13,974 nt of DNA from a virus (taxonomy: Duplodnaviria; Heunggongvirae; Uroviricota; Caudoviricetes). Location: IMG/VR virus record IMGVR_UViG_2531839579_000009; one strand, written 5' to 3'. Shown here in pieces: positions 1,787 through 13,764 of this stretch. A program made the position numbers and the translations under genes. Position 1 is the stretch's first letter. Each line of letters begins with the position of its first letter. Under the pieces are notes generated by a model, which searched no databases, had not been told where the DNA came from, and saw nothing but the letters and a program-made list of their open reading frames with translations.

Positions 1787-3292
1787 TGGCAATTCTTGAT
1801 GATGTGATTGGCGTTTTTTCACCAGGATGGAAAGCGGCAAGGCTGCGTTCCCGTGCGGTGATCCAGGCTTATGAGGCCGTAAAAACGACGCGGACACACA
1901 AAGCCCGACGGGAGAACAGAACTGCCGACCAGTTAAGCCAGTACGGGGCCGTGTCGTTACGTGAGCAGGCCCGTTACCTTGATAACAACCACGATCTGGT
2001 TATTGGTGTATTTGACAAGCTGGAAGAACGGGTGGTGGGGAAAAACGGGATTATTGTCGAGCCACATCCGGTATTACGCAATGGGGCCATTGCCCGTGAT
2101 CTGGCAGCGGAGATACGTACCCGATGGAGTGAATGGTCTGTCAGCCGGAGTCACCGGGCAGTTTACCCGTCCGATGCTGGAACGTCTGATGCTGCGTACC
2201 TGGCTGCGCGATGGTGAGGTGTTTGCCCAGATGGTTTCCGGGCGCATAAACAGCCTGACGCCTTCTGCCGGTGTTCATTTCTGGCTGGAGGCGCTCGAGC
2301 CGGACTTTATTCCCATGACCAGTGATGAGAGCAACAGGCTGAATCAGGGCGTGTTTGTTGATGACTGGGGGCGTCCCGAAAAATATCTGGTGTATAAAAG
2401 TCGTCCTGTATCCGGACGGCAGATGGAAACCAAAGAAGTGGATGCAGAGCGAATGCTGCATCTTAAATTTGTTCGCCGTCTGCACCAGATGCGCGGGACG
2501 TCTTTATTGTCCGGTGTGCTGATCCGCCTCAGCGCCCTGAAAGAGTATGAAGATTCTGAGCTGACTGCAGCAAGGGTCGCCGCTGCTCTGGGGATGTACA
2601 TCCGCAAAGGCGACGGACAGAGCTATGAAACGGATGGTAATTACAGCAAGGAGAAGGAACGCGAGCTTACCATTCAGCCAGGCATTATTTACGATGATCT
2701 GAAACCCGGCGAAGAAATCGGAATGGTGAAGTCGGATCGCCCCAATCCTAACCTTGAAACTTTTCGTAATGCTCAGTTGCGTGCCGTGGCGGCGGGCAGT
2801 CGTCTGAGTTTTTCCAGTACAGCGCGCAACTATAACGGCACTTACAGCGCCCAGCGTCAGGAGCTGGTTGAATCCACTGATGGCTACCTGATCCTGCAGG
2901 ACTGGTTTATTGGTGCCGTCACCCGCCCGATGTATCGTGCATGGCTGAAACAGGCTGTGGCATCCGGTGTTATCAGGCTACCCCGCGATCTTGACCGTTC
3001 TTCACTGTATACCGCGGTGTATTCCGGACCAGTGATGCCGTGGATTGACCCTGTTAAGGAGGCTGAGGCCTGGAAAATCCAGATTCGTGGTGGAGCGGCG
3101 ACAGAATCAGACTGGGTACGTGCTGGTGGTCGTAATCCGGATGATGTCAAACGTCGGCGCAAGGCCGAAATTGATGAAAACCGCAAGCTGGACCTAGTAT
3201 TTGATACCGATCCGGCCAGTGATAAAGGAGGCAGTAGTGCCGCAACGAAACGACAGGAGCCGCAGCACACCGACGACCAGTCCGAAGATTAA
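1786..3292 (+). pseudogene. Phage portal protein, reading frame broken near 2140-2155 in this sequence
   Basis: ORFs 1714..2217 (frame 1) and 1961..3292 (frame 2) together form one portal-sized protein of about 500 aa. The switch occurs within agccggagtcaccggg. Position directly after gpW and before the prohead protease fits a portal. Confidence 0.8.
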
Positions 3293-5674: not shown

Positions 5675-5942
5675 TCCCTTTTCCCGGCTGGCAGCGCGTA
5701 TGGATGCGATCACGGTTAGAAAGATGGGAAAGACAGCCTCGATTAATGATGCCGATATGACTGTGATCCCGGGAGAAACACTGGCAGAGCTGAATGCTCT
5801 GTCCGGACCTGCGGTATCTCTGGTGGTGTTTTCTTCGGGATACCGCCCACGGCGCGGGGATCGCGTTGTTTATGACGGACAACAATGGACGGTCACACGG
5901 CATGAACGTTTTAACGGTAAGCCAATGATCTTTATTGAGTAA
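5667..5942 (+). CDS. FII: Head-tail attachment protein (lambda gpFII-like)
   Basis: 91 aa with a C-terminal …RRGDRVVYDGQQWTVTRHE… resembling the lambda gpFII RRGD region. Start overlaps the upstream stop (ATGTCTGA), suggesting translational coupling. Sits directly before gpZ as in lambda. Confidence 0.55.
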   Translation: MSDPFSRLAARMDAITVRKMGKTASINDADMTVIPGETLAELNALSGPAVSLVVFSSGYRPRRGDRVVYDGQQWTVTRHERFNGKPMIFIE

Positions 5943-5953
5943 AGAGGTGTGGG

Positions 5954-6535
5954 ATGAAGGGGCTTGAGAATGCTATCCGCAATCTGAACAGCCTTGATAC
6001 CCGTATGGTGCCACAGGCCAGCGCATGGGCGATAAACCGTGTGGCACAGAAAGCGGTCTCGGTCGCCACCCGGCAGGTTGCCGGGAATACCGTTGCGGGA
6101 GATAACCAGGTGAAAGGGATCCCCCTGAAACTGGTACGTCAGCGTGTCCGGGTGTTTAAAGCCAGTCCGTCAGGAAAAATGACGGCCAGGATCCGCGTTA
6201 ACCGGGGCAATCTGCCCACCATCAAGCTGGGGACAGCCCGGGTCAGACTGGCCCGGCGTGGTGGAAAACTGCAGTACCGTGGCAGTATTCAGCAACTGGC
6301 GAATGGCCGCTGGCATGTTCTGAGGCGTCTTCCTGAAGCGCGTTTTGCAACAGGGCATGTGATGCGGCGTATTGATGGCAAAAATCGTTACCCCATTGAT
6401 GTGGTGAAAGTCCCGCTGTCCGGACCGCTGACACAAGCATTTGAAGATGCCCGCGACCGCATTATTGCTGCGGAAATGCCGAAACAGCTGGGGTATGCAC
6501 TGAAACAACAACTGAGGTTATGGCTGACCCGATGA
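5954..6535 (+). CDS. Z: Minor tail protein Z (tail completion)
   Basis: 193 aa. MKGLENAIRNLNSL…NGRWHV…KNRYPIDVVK…LGYAL…QLR matches lambda gpZ (192 aa) along its length. AGAGG sits 6 nt upstream. Confidence 0.9.
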   Translation: MKGLENAIRNLNSLDTRMVPQASAWAINRVAQKAVSVATRQVAGNTVAGDNQVKGIPLKLVRQRVRVFKASPSGKMTARIRVNRGNLPTIKLGTARVRLARRGGKLQYRGSIQQLANGRWHVLRRLPEARFATGHVMRRIDGKNRYPIDVVKVPLSGPLTQAFEDARDRIIAAEMPKQLGYALKQQLRLWLTR

Positions 6536-6931
6536 ACCGACATACACAAATCCGCCAGGCCGTACTGGCACGCCTTCGGAACAGTGTGGAGACAGCGCCA
6601 CGTTTTTTGACGGGCTTCCGGCATTTTTGATGCGCAGGAACTGCCTGCCGTGGCGGTGTGGCTGAGTGATGCTCAGTACACCGGAAAAATGACGGATGAA
6701 GATGACTGGCAGGCTGTTCTGCATATTGCTGTCTTCATCCGGGCACAGGCACCGGATTCAGAGCTGGATATGTGGATGGAGAGCACCATTTTCCCGGCTC
6801 TGAATGATATACCGGCACTTTCCGGACTCATCGACACCCTGATCCCTCTCGGTTTTAACTATCAACGTGATAATGAGATGGCCACCTGGGCGATGGCGGA
6901 AATCACGTACCAGATCACGTACACGAATTAA
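6532..6931 (+). pseudogene. U: Tail terminator protein U, frame broken twice (about 6600 and 6626) in this sequence
   Basis: N-terminus MNRHTQIRQAVLARL… is in frame 1 to 6600, TFFDGLPAF in frame 0 (6600-6626), and FDAQELPAVAVWLSDAQYTG…DSELDMWMES…ITYQITY in frame 2 to the stop at 6929-6931. Each piece matches lambda gpU. The second break is in a T5 run. Confidence 0.85.
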
Positions 6932-6941
6932 GGAGGTGGTA

Positions 6942-7681
6942 ATGACCACACCAAATCCACTGGCAAAAACGAAAGGTGCGGGAACGACGTTCTGGATGTA
7001 ACCGGCAAGGCGATGCGTTTGCGAACCCTTTTCGGACACTGACTGGTGCGTCTTGCGATGGTGAAGGATCTGCAACCTGGCGAAATGACCGCTGATGCAG
7101 AAGATGACACTTATCTCGATGATGAAGATGCAGACTGGAAAACGACAACCCAGGGGCAGAAATCCGTCGGTGATACTTCGGCGACGCTGGCCTGGCGTCC
7201 GGGGGACAGCGGGCAGAAAAAACTGGTTCAGTTGTTCGACTCCGGTGAAGTCTGCGCGTTTCGTATCAAATATCCCAACGGTACTGTTGATGTTTTCCGT
7301 GGCTGGCTGAGTTCACTGGGTAAAACCATTGCCTCAAAAGACGTGATGACCCGCACCGTGAAAATCAGCGGTGTGGGGCGTCCGTATCTGGCAGAGGAAG
7401 GCACTGAAACCGTGGGCGTTACCGGGCTGACGGTGGCACCGGCATCTGCCAGTGTAAAAGTGGGAGCAACCACCACGCTGACCTTTACAGTAAAACCTGA
7501 CGGAGCCAGTGACAAAGCGATCAGTGTGCATTCGACAGATCCACAGACTGCCACGGTGACCCTGAACGGGCTTGTGGCCACGGTGAAAGGCGTGAAGCAG
7601 GGCAGTGTCAGCATTGTGGGCATGACTTCTGACGGCGATTTTGTGGCCGTGGCTGCGGTGGCTGTCAGCGCCGCAGGTTAA
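6942..7681 (+). pseudogene. V: Major tail tube protein V with C-terminal Ig-like domain; four frame breaks within 6998-7049
   Basis: AGGAGG at 6931-6936, ATG 6942. MTTPNPLAKTKGAGTTFWM runs into a stop at 6999. Homology to lambda gpV then continues in frame 2, frame 1, frame 0 and back to frame 2 from 7049 to the stop at 7679-7681. Confidence 0.85.
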
Positions 7682-7741: not shown

Positions 7742-8128
7742 ATGTTTCTGAAACAGGGCTCGTTTAATTATGAAAAGCAGTCCGTGGTGCTCAGTGAGCT
7801 GTCCGGGCTGCAGAGAATTGAATATCTGGCGTTTGTTCAGCAGCGAACGGCAAAGTTTGATGCCGAAGAGGGAGAACTGCCGGAGGCTGAACGACAGATT
7901 GCTTTTCTGCGGATGGGGATGGATATCAATGCCTGGCTGGTTTCCCGCTCACTGTGGAATGCGGATCAGTCTAAGGATGTAGAGACGCTTTGCGCATCCG
8001 TTATTACAACATGGTCGTATGATGCCCTGGGTGCGGGGGCGGAGATGGTTCTGTCGCTGAGCGGTATGGGGGCCATTGATAATGCCGGGGATGATGAGCA
8101 TGAGGCGCTGACGCCGGAAAAGTCCTGA
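7742..8128 (+). CDS. G: Tail assembly chaperone G
   Basis: MFLKQGSFNYEKQSVVLSELSGLQRIEYLA… matches the lambda gpG N-terminus (MFLKTESFEHNGVTVTLSELSALQRIEHLA…). GGAG sits 6 nt upstream of ATG 7742. Stop at 8126-8128. Confidence 0.85.
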   Translation: MFLKQGSFNYEKQSVVLSELSGLQRIEYLAFVQQRTAKFDAEEGELPEAERQIAFLRMGMDINAWLVSRSLWNADQSKDVETLCASVITTWSYDALGAGAEMVLSLSGMGAIDNAGDDEHEALTPEKS

Positions 8129-8465
8129 CGCGGGAAATGCAGTTTGTCATGCGGCTTGCCCGGGAGTTCCGGCGGGCAGACTGGCGGCGGATGCTGTCGG
8201 AAATGTCGGCCACTGAGCTTGGTGAGTGGGGCGATTATTTCCGGATGCAGAGCTTCAGTGATGTGTGGATGGATGCGCAGTTTGCCTCGCTGAAGGCATT
8301 GATCGTGAGAATGGTGTCCGGCAGCAGTGATGCTGCGGTGGCTGATTTCAGCCTTTTACCGGAAGAGAACGGGATACCGGAGCGAACGGACGAAGAACTG
8401 ATGCATCTTGGGAAGGTATTTCCGGAGGTGTGCGTTATGGACCAGATAGCCAACCTGGTCATTGA
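8104..8465 (+). CDS. T: gpT segment of the G-T tail assembly chaperone (expressed only as a G-T fusion by -1 frameshift). 3' end uncertain: as written the frame reads through into H.
   Basis: The -1 frame relative to G encodes …REFRRADWRRMLSEMSATELGEWGDYFRMQSFSD…, which I recognise as gpT-like. There is no stop in this frame before 9615. A plausible gpT C-terminus (…GGVRYGPD… with stop at 8463-8465) is in another frame from about 8410. Confidence 0.5.
8116..8122 (+). promoter_or_regulatory. Candidate -1 programmed ribosomal frameshift site (G GAA AAG) for the G-T fusion
   Basis: Heptamer in the G frame 4 nt before the G stop. The -1 frame is open from 8104 and encodes a gpT-like sequence. 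Lambda uses G GGA AAG at the equivalent place. Confidence 0.5.
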
Positions 8466-11400
8466 TTTGGGGATTGATGCGGCAGAGTTTAAAAATGAAA
8501 TTCCCCGTATCAAAAACCTTCTGAATGGTGCCGCCAGCGATGCAGAACGGTCTTCTGCCCGTATGCAGCGTTTTATGGAGCGTCAGACTCAGGCCGCCCG
8601 GCAGACAACGCAGGCGGCTTCTTCGGCTGCAACAGCCGCCTCCGTCCATGCGCAGACGGTGGAGAAGAACGCACAGGCTCATGAACGCATGGCCCGCGAG
8701 GTGGAGAAAACCCGCCAGCGCATGGAGGCGCTGAGCCAGAAAATGCGCGATGAACAGGCGCAGGCCATGGCTCTGGCGGAGGCTCAGGATAAAGCGGCTG
8801 CTGCGTTTTATCGTCAGATTGACAGTGTGAAACAGGCCAGTGCGGGGCTGCAGGAATTACAGCGTATTCAGCAGCAGATCCGACAGGCCAGAAACAGTGG
8901 CGGGATTGGTCAGCAGGATTATCTGGCGCTGATTTCTGAGGTTACGGCGAAAACCCGTGTTCTTACACAGGCTGAGGAAGAGGCTACCCGACAGAAAGTG
9001 GCGTTTATCCGTCAGCTTAAAGAGCAGGCAACCCGCCAGAATCTTTCTTCTTCTGAGTTGCTTCGTGCTAAGGCTGCCCAGCTGGGGGTAAGCAGTGCTG
9101 CAGAAGTGTATATCCGCAAAATGGAGCAGGCAGGAAAAGCCACGCATTCGCTGGGTCTGAAAAGTGCAGCGGCCCGTCAGGAGATAGGCGTTCTGATAGG
9201 TGAACTGGCCCGCGGCAATTTAGGTGCGCTGAGGGGATCCGGAATAACGCTGGCTAACCGTGCCGGGTGGATAGACACATTGATGTCACCGAAAGGCATG
9301 ATGCTTGGCGGGGTTATTGGCGGTATTGCCGCGGCTGTCTATGGTCTGGGTAAAGCCTGGTATGACGGTCAGAAGGAGGGGGAAGAATTTAACCGCCAGC
9401 TGTCGCTGACGGGGCATTATGCCGGAGTCACTGCCGGGCAGCTGTGGACGCTCAGTCGTGCTATTTCCGGGAATGGTATCACGCAACATGCTGCAGCCGG
9501 TGCGCTGGCTCAGGTGGTGGGGAGTGGTGCATTTCGTGGAAACGATATCGGTATGGTGGCGAGAGTGCCGCACAGATGGAGCGATCGGTTGGCCAGTCGG
9601 TCAGCGATACCATAAGTCAGTTTAAGCGGCTGAAGGATGATCCTGTAAATGCCGCGAAGGCTCTGGACAATGAGCTGCATTTTCTTACTGCCACTCAGCT
9701 TGAGCAGATACGCGTCCTTGGGGAGCAGGGGCGGTCCAGTGATGCTGCACGGATAGCCATGTCTGCACTGGCAGAGGAAACCGGTCGGCGTACTGCGGAT
9801 ATTGATAATAACCTCAATGCGCTTGGCAGTACGCTGAAGTATCTGTCTGATTTGTGGAGTCGTTTCTGGGATGCGGCCATGAATATTGGTCGTGAAGACT
9901 CGCTGGATGAACAGATTGCCGCTTTACAGGAGAAAGTGTCGCGGGCGAAAAGACTCCCCTGGACGGCATCATCTTCTCAGGTTGAATACGATCAGCAGCG
10001 TCTTAACGATCTTCAGGAGAAAAAACGCCAGAAGGATTTGCAGGATGCAAAAGAGCAGGCAGAGCGGAATTATCAGGAGCAACAGAAACGCCGTAATGCT
10101 GAAAATGCTGCACTGAACCGGATGAATGAAACGGAAGCAGCACGACATCAGCGTGAAATTGCGCGTATTAATGCCATGCAGTACGCCGATCAGGCTGTCA
10201 GGGATGCGGCGATACAACGTGAAAATGAACGTTACGAGAAAGCCCTGGCATCCGGTAAGAAAAAAACACGCGAAACCCGTAATGATGAGGCCACCCGGTT
10301 ATTGCTGCAGTACAGTCAGCAACAGGCACAGGTGGAAGGACAGATTGCTGCTGCAGACAGTCAGCAGGCATTGCCACTGACAGGATGACAGAAGCGCATA
10401 AACAGCTTCTGGCTCTGCAGCAGCGCATCAGCGACCTGGACGGGAAAAAACTGACGGCAGATGAAAAGAGTGTGCTGGCCCGTAAAGATGAACTGATTCA
10501 GGCACTGACGCTGCTGGATGTAAAACAGCAGGAGCTTCAGAAACAGACGGCACTCAACGATCTGAAGAAAAAAACAATTCAGCTGACCAGTCAACTGGCT
10601 GAAGAAGAGCGCGCTCAGCGTCAGCAACATGACCTGGATATCGCCACGGTGGGTATGGGTGATCAGCAGCGGCAGCGATATCAGGTACAACTGAGTCTTC
10701 GCCAGAAATACCAGCAACAGCTGGAGCAGTTGAGGCGGGATAGTGAGCAGAAAGGAACATATAACACGGATGACTACAGAAAGGCCGAGCAGGCGCTGAC
10801 GGAGAGCCTGAACCGACAACTGAATGAGAATCGCCGTTACTGGCAACAGCTTGAAGTTGCTCAGGGTGACTGGAAAAACGGAGTCCTGCGTGCACTCCAG
10901 AATGTCACTGAGGAAGCGGATAACACGGCAGAAACAGCAGAACAGGTGTTCTCGTCAGCCTTCAGCAACATGGGAAATGGCCTGGCAACTTTTGTCACTA
11001 CCGGCAAACTCAATTTCAAATCCTTCACCTCTTCTGTGCTGTCAGATATGGCGAAAATCCTGGCGCAGATAGCTTTAATGAAAGCGGTAAAAGGTATTGC
11101 TTCCGCGCTGCCTTTTGATCTTGTAGCCAATGCTGATGGCGGTGTTTATCAGTCGGCTGATTTGAGTCGCTACAGTGGCACGGTGGTTAACCGTCCGACG
11201 TTTTTTGCTTTTGCAAAAGGCGCGGGTGTGATGGGGGAAGCGGGACCTGAAGCCATTCTGCCATTGCGTCGTGGTGCTGACGGTAAGCTGGGGGTTGTGG
11301 CGGATATTGGGGGTTCAGGTATGGCGATGTTTGCCCCGCAGTACAACATCGAGATCAATAACGATGGCACGAACGGGCAGATAGGTCCGGCTGCCCTGAA

Positions 11401-11829: not shown

Positions 11830-12495
11830 ATGCAGGATATTCCACAGGAAACACATCATGAGACGACACGCCTCACTCAGTCAGCCCAGGTGGTGCTCTG
11901 GGAAATCGATCTGACAGAGGTCGGTGGTGAACGTTATTTTTTCTGTAATGAGCAGAACGAAAAAGGTGAGCCGGTCACCTGGCAGGGGCGGCAGTATCAG
12001 GCATACCCCATTCAGGGGACGGGATTTGAACTGAACGGAAGGGCAGTGCTCCGCCACCTGACGGTTCTAACCTGACGGATGGTCACCGGGATGGCGGAAG
12101 ACTGCAGAGTCTGGTCGGCGGAACGGTGGTCGGCGTAAGGTTTACGCCCGTTTTCTGGATGCGGTGAACTTCGTCAACGGAAACAGAGCCGATCCGGAGC
12201 AGGAGGTGATCAGCCGCTGGCGCATGAGCAGTGAGCGAACTGAGGCGGTAGTGCCTCTTTGTCTTCCACCCGACGAAACGGATGGGCTGTTTTTCCGGGC
12301 GATCATGCTGGCCAACACCTGCACCTGGACCTATCGCGGGAGAGTGCGGTTATCGGTCCGGCGTCGCGGATGAATATGACCAGCCACGTCCGATATCACG
12401 AAGGATAAATGCAGCAAATGCCTGAGGGCTGTAAGTTTCGCAATAACGTCGGCAACTTTGGCGGCTTCCTTTCCATTAACAAACTTTCGCAGTAA
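11830..12495 (+). pseudogene. L: Minor tail protein L, multiply frame-broken between about 12039 and 12430
   Basis: AGGAGG sits 5 nt upstream. The first 69 aa (MQDI…VVLWEIDLTEVGGERYFFCNEQNEKGEPVTWQGRQYQ…ELNG) are near-identical to lambda gpL. After 12039, exact lambda-like peptides appear in alternating frames, ending in-frame with …GFLSINKLSQ and a stop at 12493-12495. Confidence 0.85.
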
Positions 12496-12499
12496 TCCC

Positions 12500-13226
12500 A
12501 TGACAAGACAGAATCAGCGATTCTGGCGCACGCCCGGCGATGTGCGCCAGCGGAGTCGTGCGGCTTCGTGGTGAGAACGCCGGAGGGGAAAGATATTTTC
12601 CCTGCGTGAATATCTCCGGTGAGCCGGAGGCGTATTTCCGGATGTCGCCGGAGGACTGGCTGCAGGCAGAATGCAGGGTGAGATTGTGGCGCTGGTCCAC
12701 AGCCACCCCGGTGGTCTGCCCTGGCTGAGTGAGGCGACCGGCGGCTGCAGGTGCAGAGTGATTTGCCGTGGTGGCTGGTCTGCCGGGGGCGATTCATAAT
12801 TCCGCTGTGTGCCGCATCTCACCGGGCGGCGCTTTGAGCACGGGGTGACGGACTGTTACACGCTGTTCCGGGAGCTTACATCTGGCGGGATTGAGATGCC
12901 GGATTTTCATCGCGGGGATACTGGTGGCGTCACGGTCAGAATCTCTATCTGGATAATCTGGAGGCCACAGGGCTGTATCAGGTGCCGTTGTCAGCGGCGC
13001 AGCCGGGCGATGTGCTGCTGTGCTGTTTTGGTTCATCGGTGCCGAATCATGCCGCCATTTACTGGGGACGGGAGCTGCTGCACCATATTCCTGAACAACT
13101 GAGAAACGAGAGAGGTATACCGACAAATGGCAGCGACGCACACACTCCCTCTGGCGTCACCGGGATGGCACGCATCTGCCTTTACGGGGATTTCAACGAT
13201 TTGGCCGCCGCATCGACCTTCGGTGA
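12500..13226 (+). pseudogene. K: Tail tip assembly protein K (JAMM/MPN plus NlpC/P60-type domains), multiply frame-broken
   Basis: MTRQNQRFWR… start. Lambda gpK-like peptides (CGFVVR; GGERYFPCVNIS…EAYFRMSPEDWLQAE; EIVALVHSHPGGLPWLSEA; DRRLQVQSDLPWWLVCRG; PHLTGRRFEHGVTDCYTLFR; GIEMPDFHR; NLYLDNLEATGLYQVPLSAAQPGDVLLCCFGSSVPNHAAIY…ELLHHIPEQL) are spread over all three frames. Confidence 0.8.
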
Positions 13227-13764
13227 AAACGGGGCGAAGCCATCCGGGCGCTGGCCATGCAGTCCCGGCGTTTCGTCAGAACTGAGCGACGGCTGGTATC
13301 AGGTACGCATTGCCGGGCGTGATGCAGGTGAAACCGAATTGTCTGCCCGTCTTAATGAGCCGCTGGCAAATGGTGCCGTGATCCAATCGTGCCGCGTCTG
13401 GCGGGAGCTAAAAGTGGCGGTGTGTTTCAGGTGGTGCTGGGGGCGGCGTTGATTGCGGTGGCATGGTGGAACCCTGTGGGCTGGCTGGGTGCCGCGGCTG
13501 TATCGGGCATGTATGCGGCAGGGGCCAGTATGATCCTGGGCGGGTGGCGCAGATGCTGGCACCGAAAGCCAGGACGCCACGGCAGCCAGTACAGATAACG
13601 GCAAACAGAACACCTATTTTTCCTCACTGGATAACATGGTTGCTCAGGGCAATGTTTTGCCTGTTCTGTACGGGGAAATGCGTGTGGGGTCGCGGGTGGT
13701 TTCTCAGGAGATCAGCACGGCAGACGAAGGGGACGGTGGTCAGGTTGTGGTGATTGGTCGCTGA
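13127..13764 (+). pseudogene. I: Tail tip assembly protein I, multiply frame-broken; overlaps the 3' end of K
   Basis: MAATHTLPLASPG start. MARICLYGD, QRFGRRIDLR, VKTG…PAFRQ, LSDGWYQVRIAGRD, AGAKSGGVFQVVLGAA, VAQMLAPKARTPR and DNGKQNTYFSSLDNMVAQGNVLPVLYGEMRVGSRVVSQEISTADEGDGGQVVVIGR match lambda gpI but in alternating frames. Stop at 13762-13764. Confidence 0.8.

Follow-up and report, generated by a model that had tools for sequence, protein, structure and literature searches.

Frame breaks in the tail terminator gene U of a lambdoid prophage: a probable consensus artefact over near-identical prophage copies

In the window analysed here, a stretch of 13,974 nucleotides of viral DNA (IMG/VR record IMGVR_UViG_2531839579_000009), gene U is written in three successive reading frames. 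Comparison of the sequence with its relatives makes it very probable that the two frame breaks are a data artefact, arising from a consensus or contig drawn over at least two near-identical prophage copies, with variable positions lost. An earlier note on this DNA had already suspected the data, and the comparison favours an artefact, with each break consisting of one missing base. The same note had treated the breaks as a local matter of gpU, a view that does not hold: the two breaks are most likely members of a set of about 66 dropouts, nearly all of 1 nt, that are spread over the window and share one cause.

Gene U and its two missing bases

The window is the head and tail morphogenesis block of an mEp460/cdtI-like lambdoid prophage of E. 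coli. Its genes run from a terL fragment through portal, a ClpP-protease/capsid fusion, Z, U, V, G, T, H, M, L, K and I to the start of J, and the order Z-U-V-G-T-H is present in the annotations of nine related loci and in the open reading frame (ORF) map of the window. Matches to the gpU region were found in 1844 of 5426 complete E. coli genomes and in 17 phage records, the gpU-region probe hitting a median of one place per complete E. coli genome. The closest complete genomes to the window are ETEC strains, among them 120899 (98.2% over the whole window), in which 12 places were counted for the window as a whole. At the left end (positions 1 to ~300 and 297–1577), the end of an IS66-family element (tnpA, minus strand) abuts a terL gene truncated N-terminally, an arrangement common to the window, 120899 and DS26-1; in 120899, the element cuts terL at the same place. 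This lesion is real and inherited, and it renders the prophage defective.

As written, gene U starts at ATG 6532, overlapping the gpZ stop (ATGA), and stops at TAA 6929–6931. Three-frame translation yields a first segment, MNRHTQIRQAVLARLR, running from the ATG with position modulo 3 equal to 1; a second, EQCGDSATFFDGLPAF, in frame 0, one frame back from the first; and a third in frame 2, FDAQELPAVAVW..., which continues to the TAA. This last segment, one further frame back, reads FDAQELPAVAVWLSDAQYTG...ITYTN before the stop. The translation agrees with the earlier description of a gpU gene broken twice, with its N-terminus in frame 1, TFFDGLPAF in frame 0 and the rest in frame 2. Read literally from 6532, the ORF comprises 32 codons and terminates at TGA 6628–6630, so that no single uninterrupted frame is present; a single gene U frame is regained once two bases are restored. 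The coordinates of the breaks and of the other features discussed below are collected in Table 1.

Table 1. Features of the window, with positions numbered from its first letter.
Feature	Position	Strand	Description
gpZ chimeric A-type/B-type segment	6242–6365	+	lacks 39 nt of the A-type, contains 42 nt of the B-type
Gene U (tail terminator, Phage_tail_U)	6532–6931	+	three frame segments as written; intact in annotated relatives
First dropout	6578–6580	+	one base missing from CGG[G/A]AA (alignments)
Second dropout	6624–6628	+	A/G lost from GCATTT[A/G]TTGAT, base at 6626/6627 (alignments)
Four single-base dropouts, start of gene V (ATG 6942)	7001–7048	+	at ~7001, 7009, 7032 and 7047
Isolated dropout, G/A column	8410–8412	+	fuses T to the tape-measure frame
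Dense patch, tail-tip genes L, K, I	12039–13577	+	50 indel events, nearly all 1-nt deletions

The bases responsible for the breaks were placed by pairwise and multiple alignment to relatives. At the first break, GGG or GGA has become GG: relatives read CTTCGG-G-AACAG (203740 type) or CTTCGG-A-AACAG (120899), and the window reads CTTCGGAACAG. The existence of this break had been recognized in the earlier note, but its placement near 6600 was off by about 20 nt, the aligned position lying upstream of, and outside, the interval 6590–6635; the break is not placeable by eye because both frames are open from 6579 to 6600. At the second break, relatives read GCATTT-A-TTGAT (Ile) or GCATTT-G-TTGAT (Val), and the window reads GCATTTTTGAT. 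As had been observed, this break lies inside a run of T, which is five long and occupies 6624–6628; the run exists because a non-T base (A or G) was lost from TTT-N-TT, and the same loss creates the in-frame TGA that ends the ORF as written. In gpU, the lost columns fall in codon 17 (the G/A site, Glu/Lys) and codon 32 (the A/G site, Ile/Val).

The second break had been attributed to a missing sixth T. Such a base does restore the frame, giving PAFFDAQEL, and lambda does have Phe at this position; however, PAFFDAQEL occurs in no relative, all of which carry A or G. The 5426 complete E. coli genomes were searched for the alleles with junction probes, 40- and 41-mers in which every possible seed spans the junction. 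Neither the GG allele of the first junction nor the T5 allele of the second was found in any of the 5426 genomes (40-mers), and the T5 junction had no match in IMG/VR, the GTDB species representatives or the JGI metagenomes. The TTTATT allele is carried by 1079 of the 5426 genomes, 1072 of them with an exact match, and the T6 allele (41-mer) by none. A homopolymer error shortening T6 to T5 was rejected on this comparison, and with it the proposed change in T-run length; the comparison of the run across homologous prophages, suggested as a check, returns no T5 or T6 run in the 5426 E. coli genomes, but TTTATT or TTTGTT instead. An inherited, shared pseudogene was likewise rejected, as the junction-spanning 40-mers are without a match in these genomes.

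Beneath the breaks there is most likely an intact gene, a common tail terminator of the lambda type with nothing unusual about it. With a G and an A restored, the product of gene U is exactly WP_001079398.1, of 133 aa. This repaired gpU, identical to the intact relative, matches PF06141 over profile positions 1–130 (E 7.8e-61, 204.5 bits, cut-off 25), and the window fragment 6650–6931 matches positions 40–130 of the same profile (E 1.9e-42, 145 bits). Repaired gpU also matches the lambda gpU entries in the PDB (3FZB, 1Z1Z) over residues 3–131, with an E of about 4e-43. The PF06141 and lambda gpU matches, together with the position of the gene in the order Z-U-V, bear out its initial identification as gpU.

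Dropouts across the window and the columns they strike

Aligned to strain 203740, the window displays 70 indel events and 285 substitutions; aligned to strain 120899, 68 indel events and 179 substitutions. Deletions in the window account for 66–67 of these 68–70 indel events, and 59 are of a single base. They are strongly clustered, with 50 indels in 12000–13600 against 7.8 expected (p = 1e-32) and 11 in 6200–7100. The clusters span 6240–7050 and 12040–13580, and the patches are separated by long clean stretches that include several 500-bp bins identical to 120899. The genes broken by dropouts are portal, U, V, T/H, H, L, K and I. The 492-aa ORF at 8137–9615 is a spurious fusion of T to the tape-measure gene produced by the isolated dropout listed in Table 1, and further isolated dropouts at 9566 and 10354–10356 split gene H. 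In the portal gene, two bases are missing at 2145–2151 and the gene is split into ORFs 1714–2217 and 1961–3292; the missing columns are not polymorphic in a three-reference panel. Only 14 of the 59 single-base losses lie next to an identical base, against a baseline of 45% (p = 0.001), a depletion that argues against replication slippage and against homopolymer sequencing error.

The lost bases coincide with columns that vary among relatives. In a three-reference comparison covering the entire window, polymorphism is seen at 39 of 89 dropped columns, as opposed to 432 of 13491 kept columns (3.2%; odds ratio 24, p = 1e-33), a coincidence that is understated because MAFFT columns merge adjoining 1-nt gaps in the densest patches. 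Against 14 intact relatives, with pairwise gap placement, 31 of 34 lost bases in the single patch 12000–12520 fall on polymorphic columns (baseline 17%, p = 4e-21). The coincidence with variable columns is slightly inflated in general, as the aligner's gap placement can absorb an adjoining mismatch. With panels of 3–9 references, roughly one dropped column in two showed no variation, and the value of 91% was reached only with the wider panel in that one patch.

Two sets of copies, denoted A-type (203740-type) and B-type (120899-type), serve to describe the haplotypes of the window. All six drops in 6579–7047 fall on differences between A-type and B-type (G/A, A/G, C/T, G/C, A/G and C/T), the last four being the gene V dropouts in the order of Table 1. 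In gpU, five further A/B differences were not dropped and are kept as A-type; that some differences were kept implies that the true parental copies are not exactly the references 203740 and 120899. In the allele track, the drops in gpU and gpV coincide with a passage from A to B, with the pattern AA--AAAB---- followed by B only, and those in L-K-I (12039–13577) occupy a zone in which A and B alleles switch at intervals of a few sites. Six places were counted for the L-K-I module in 120899, the closest complete genome, with a median of three per genome. At 10990–10996, in the tape-measure gene, the window is 1 nt shorter than 120899 at one site and 1 nt longer at another, six bases away, bordering a segment in which its alleles change from B-type to A-type; this pair of indels is probably local divergence rather than dropout.

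The zone of mixed A and B alleles that contains gpU is bounded on its left by the gpZ segment of Table 1, whose arrangement, at 6285–6365, is probably a chimeric join. Its junctions fall at a repeated GGCATG, at which the sequence returns to A-type, and gpZ remains open with the mosaic, at 193 aa. None of 1823 matching E. coli records reaches 80% coverage of the gpZ junctions, and no match to the junction was found in the GTDB representatives or in IMG/VR. The gpZ probe is found in three places in strain 120899.

Origin of the frame breaks

The proposed artefact would arise if a single consensus had been assembled from the reads of at least two lambdoid prophage copies that are nearly identical. 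Such copies could coexist as paralogous prophages of a single E. coli strain, probably ETEC-like and related to 120899, or they could come from a mixture of strains. Wherever the copies disagree, no base would be emitted, either because an ambiguous position or no-call was skipped or because an IUPAC letter or N was later stripped; each lost column would then read as a 1-nt deletion and, hence, as a frameshift. The comparison establishes where the missing bases lie and what they are, that they are unique to this sequence, that they cluster and fall on variable columns, and that the gpZ probe and the L-K-I module each have several places in 120899; the software step that lost the bases is inferred.

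It is unlikely, by comparison, that the frameshifts are genuine and that gpU and many of its neighbours have truly become pseudogenes as a prophage crippled by IS66 decays. Truncation of terL by the IS66-family element, as in 120899 and DS26-1, makes particles impossible and would leave the tail genes free to decay; as the prophage is already defective, selection would not oppose real frameshifts, and real frameshifted tail genes are known in relatives, as in the L gene of O145:H28 12E115 (T7 vs T6). However, real 1-nt deletions have no reason to strike variable columns in 44–91% of cases against a baseline of 3–17%, and they would be expected to be enriched in runs, the opposite of the depletion observed. 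The spectrum is also unnatural, with 28–29 indels against 3–7 substitutions per 500 bp in 12001–12500, and neither gpU deletion occurs among the ~1840 E. coli genomes that carry the module. Finally, the identical IS66 lesion exists elsewhere with all tail genes intact: in 120899 and DS26-1, every gene downstream of the truncation is annotated as such.

Bases missed at random by the caller in stretches of low coverage or quality, such as read ends or noisy long reads, with no mixed templates involved, appear less likely again. The patchy distribution with clean sequence in between would be expected of them, and the excess of deletions resembles that of some noisy long-read consensus sequences, but their coincidence with population-variable columns would go unexplained. 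On most platforms such dropouts would favour homopolymers, where the losses in the window are depleted, and the patches match the A/B haplotype transitions and the multi-copy module, with a chimeric junction in gpZ. A third possibility, which we regard as very improbable, is that the deletions are physically present in the DNA, through removal of single bases at heteroduplex mismatches during recombination between diverged prophage copies; repair would then leave a trail of 1-nt deletions at sites polymorphic between the partners.

A functional switch or recoding at the T run (ribosomal or transcriptional slippage, or phase variation) that regulates gpU has a negligible probability, since, despite one break lying inside a T5 run and the use of programmed -1 frameshifting in G-T by lambdoid tail operons, relatives lack the T run (TTTATT or TTTGTT), the first break falls at GG with no slippery heptamer, both shifts would be needed and the annotated homologues compared all encode gpU in one frame. 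Five T are too short for efficient slippage or phase variation. Neither site carries a slippery motif (X XXY YYZ or a long A/T run), site 1 reading CGG|AAC and site 2 GCA TTT TTG, with five T, and no run of variable length was found in relatives, as a phase-variable homopolymer would present. A promoter and terminator scan of 6300–7100 returned nothing above shuffled expectation.

If the co-assembly of near-identical copies is the correct reading, the apparent T-run frameshift is a coincidence of losing a non-T base, and every 'pseudogene' of the window (portal, U, V, T/H, L, K, I) is likely to be spurious, which calls for caution in annotating such DNA and in scanning genomes. Two questions, whether indels fall on population-variable columns and whether homopolymers are avoided, provide a reusable diagnostic for telling such an artefact from prophage decay.

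Comparison with known systems

The window resembles the consensus errors, among them the loss of ambiguity codes, that arise at variant sites in collapsed repeats or mixed haplotypes: its drops sit on variable columns, in multi-copy or mixed-haplotype zones. As in collapsed-repeat consensus errors, too, the drops are without homopolymer association, unique to the record and beside a chimeric junction.

The programmed -1 frameshift of the lambdoid G/GT genes occurs in the same operon, and in the window T is kept in the -1 frame relative to G. The gpU breaks differ from it in that they are not conserved, have no slippery heptamer and require two shifts. At 8114–8139, gene G ends ...CCG GAA AAG TCC TGA, with T (ATG 8137) in the -1 frame, which fits a G-T frameshift; the lambda heptamer GGGAAAG is absent from this interval, and its two occurrences in the window, at 5726 and 12586, are what chance would give. 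The slip site in the window lineage may be GGAAAAG or something else.

Gene L of E. coli O145:H28 12E115 (NZ_AP024921.1; L010 1–650) is annotated as 'frameshifted' and has T7 where all other copies have T6, a real instance of the homopolymer type of break envisaged in the earlier note. Like the second gpU break, it is a single-base break beside a T run in a lambdoid tail gene. In 12E115, the length of the run itself has changed, whereas the run in the window reflects a deleted non-T base, and the dropouts avoid runs.

Lambda gpU (PF06141; PDB 1Z1Z, 3FZ2, 3FZB) forms a hexameric ring between gpFII and the gpV tail tube (PMC10721106). The hexamer caps this tube and binds gpFII on the head. Like its lambda counterpart, the window gene sits between Z and V; unlike it, the gene as written is split over three frames. 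At the T run, the column that was dropped encodes Ile or Val in the mEp460/cdtI-like lineage and Phe in lambda (PAVFDEADFPAVAVY), and it falls within the stretch aligned to the O-loop of lambda gpU (residues 25–37), which contacts gpFII.
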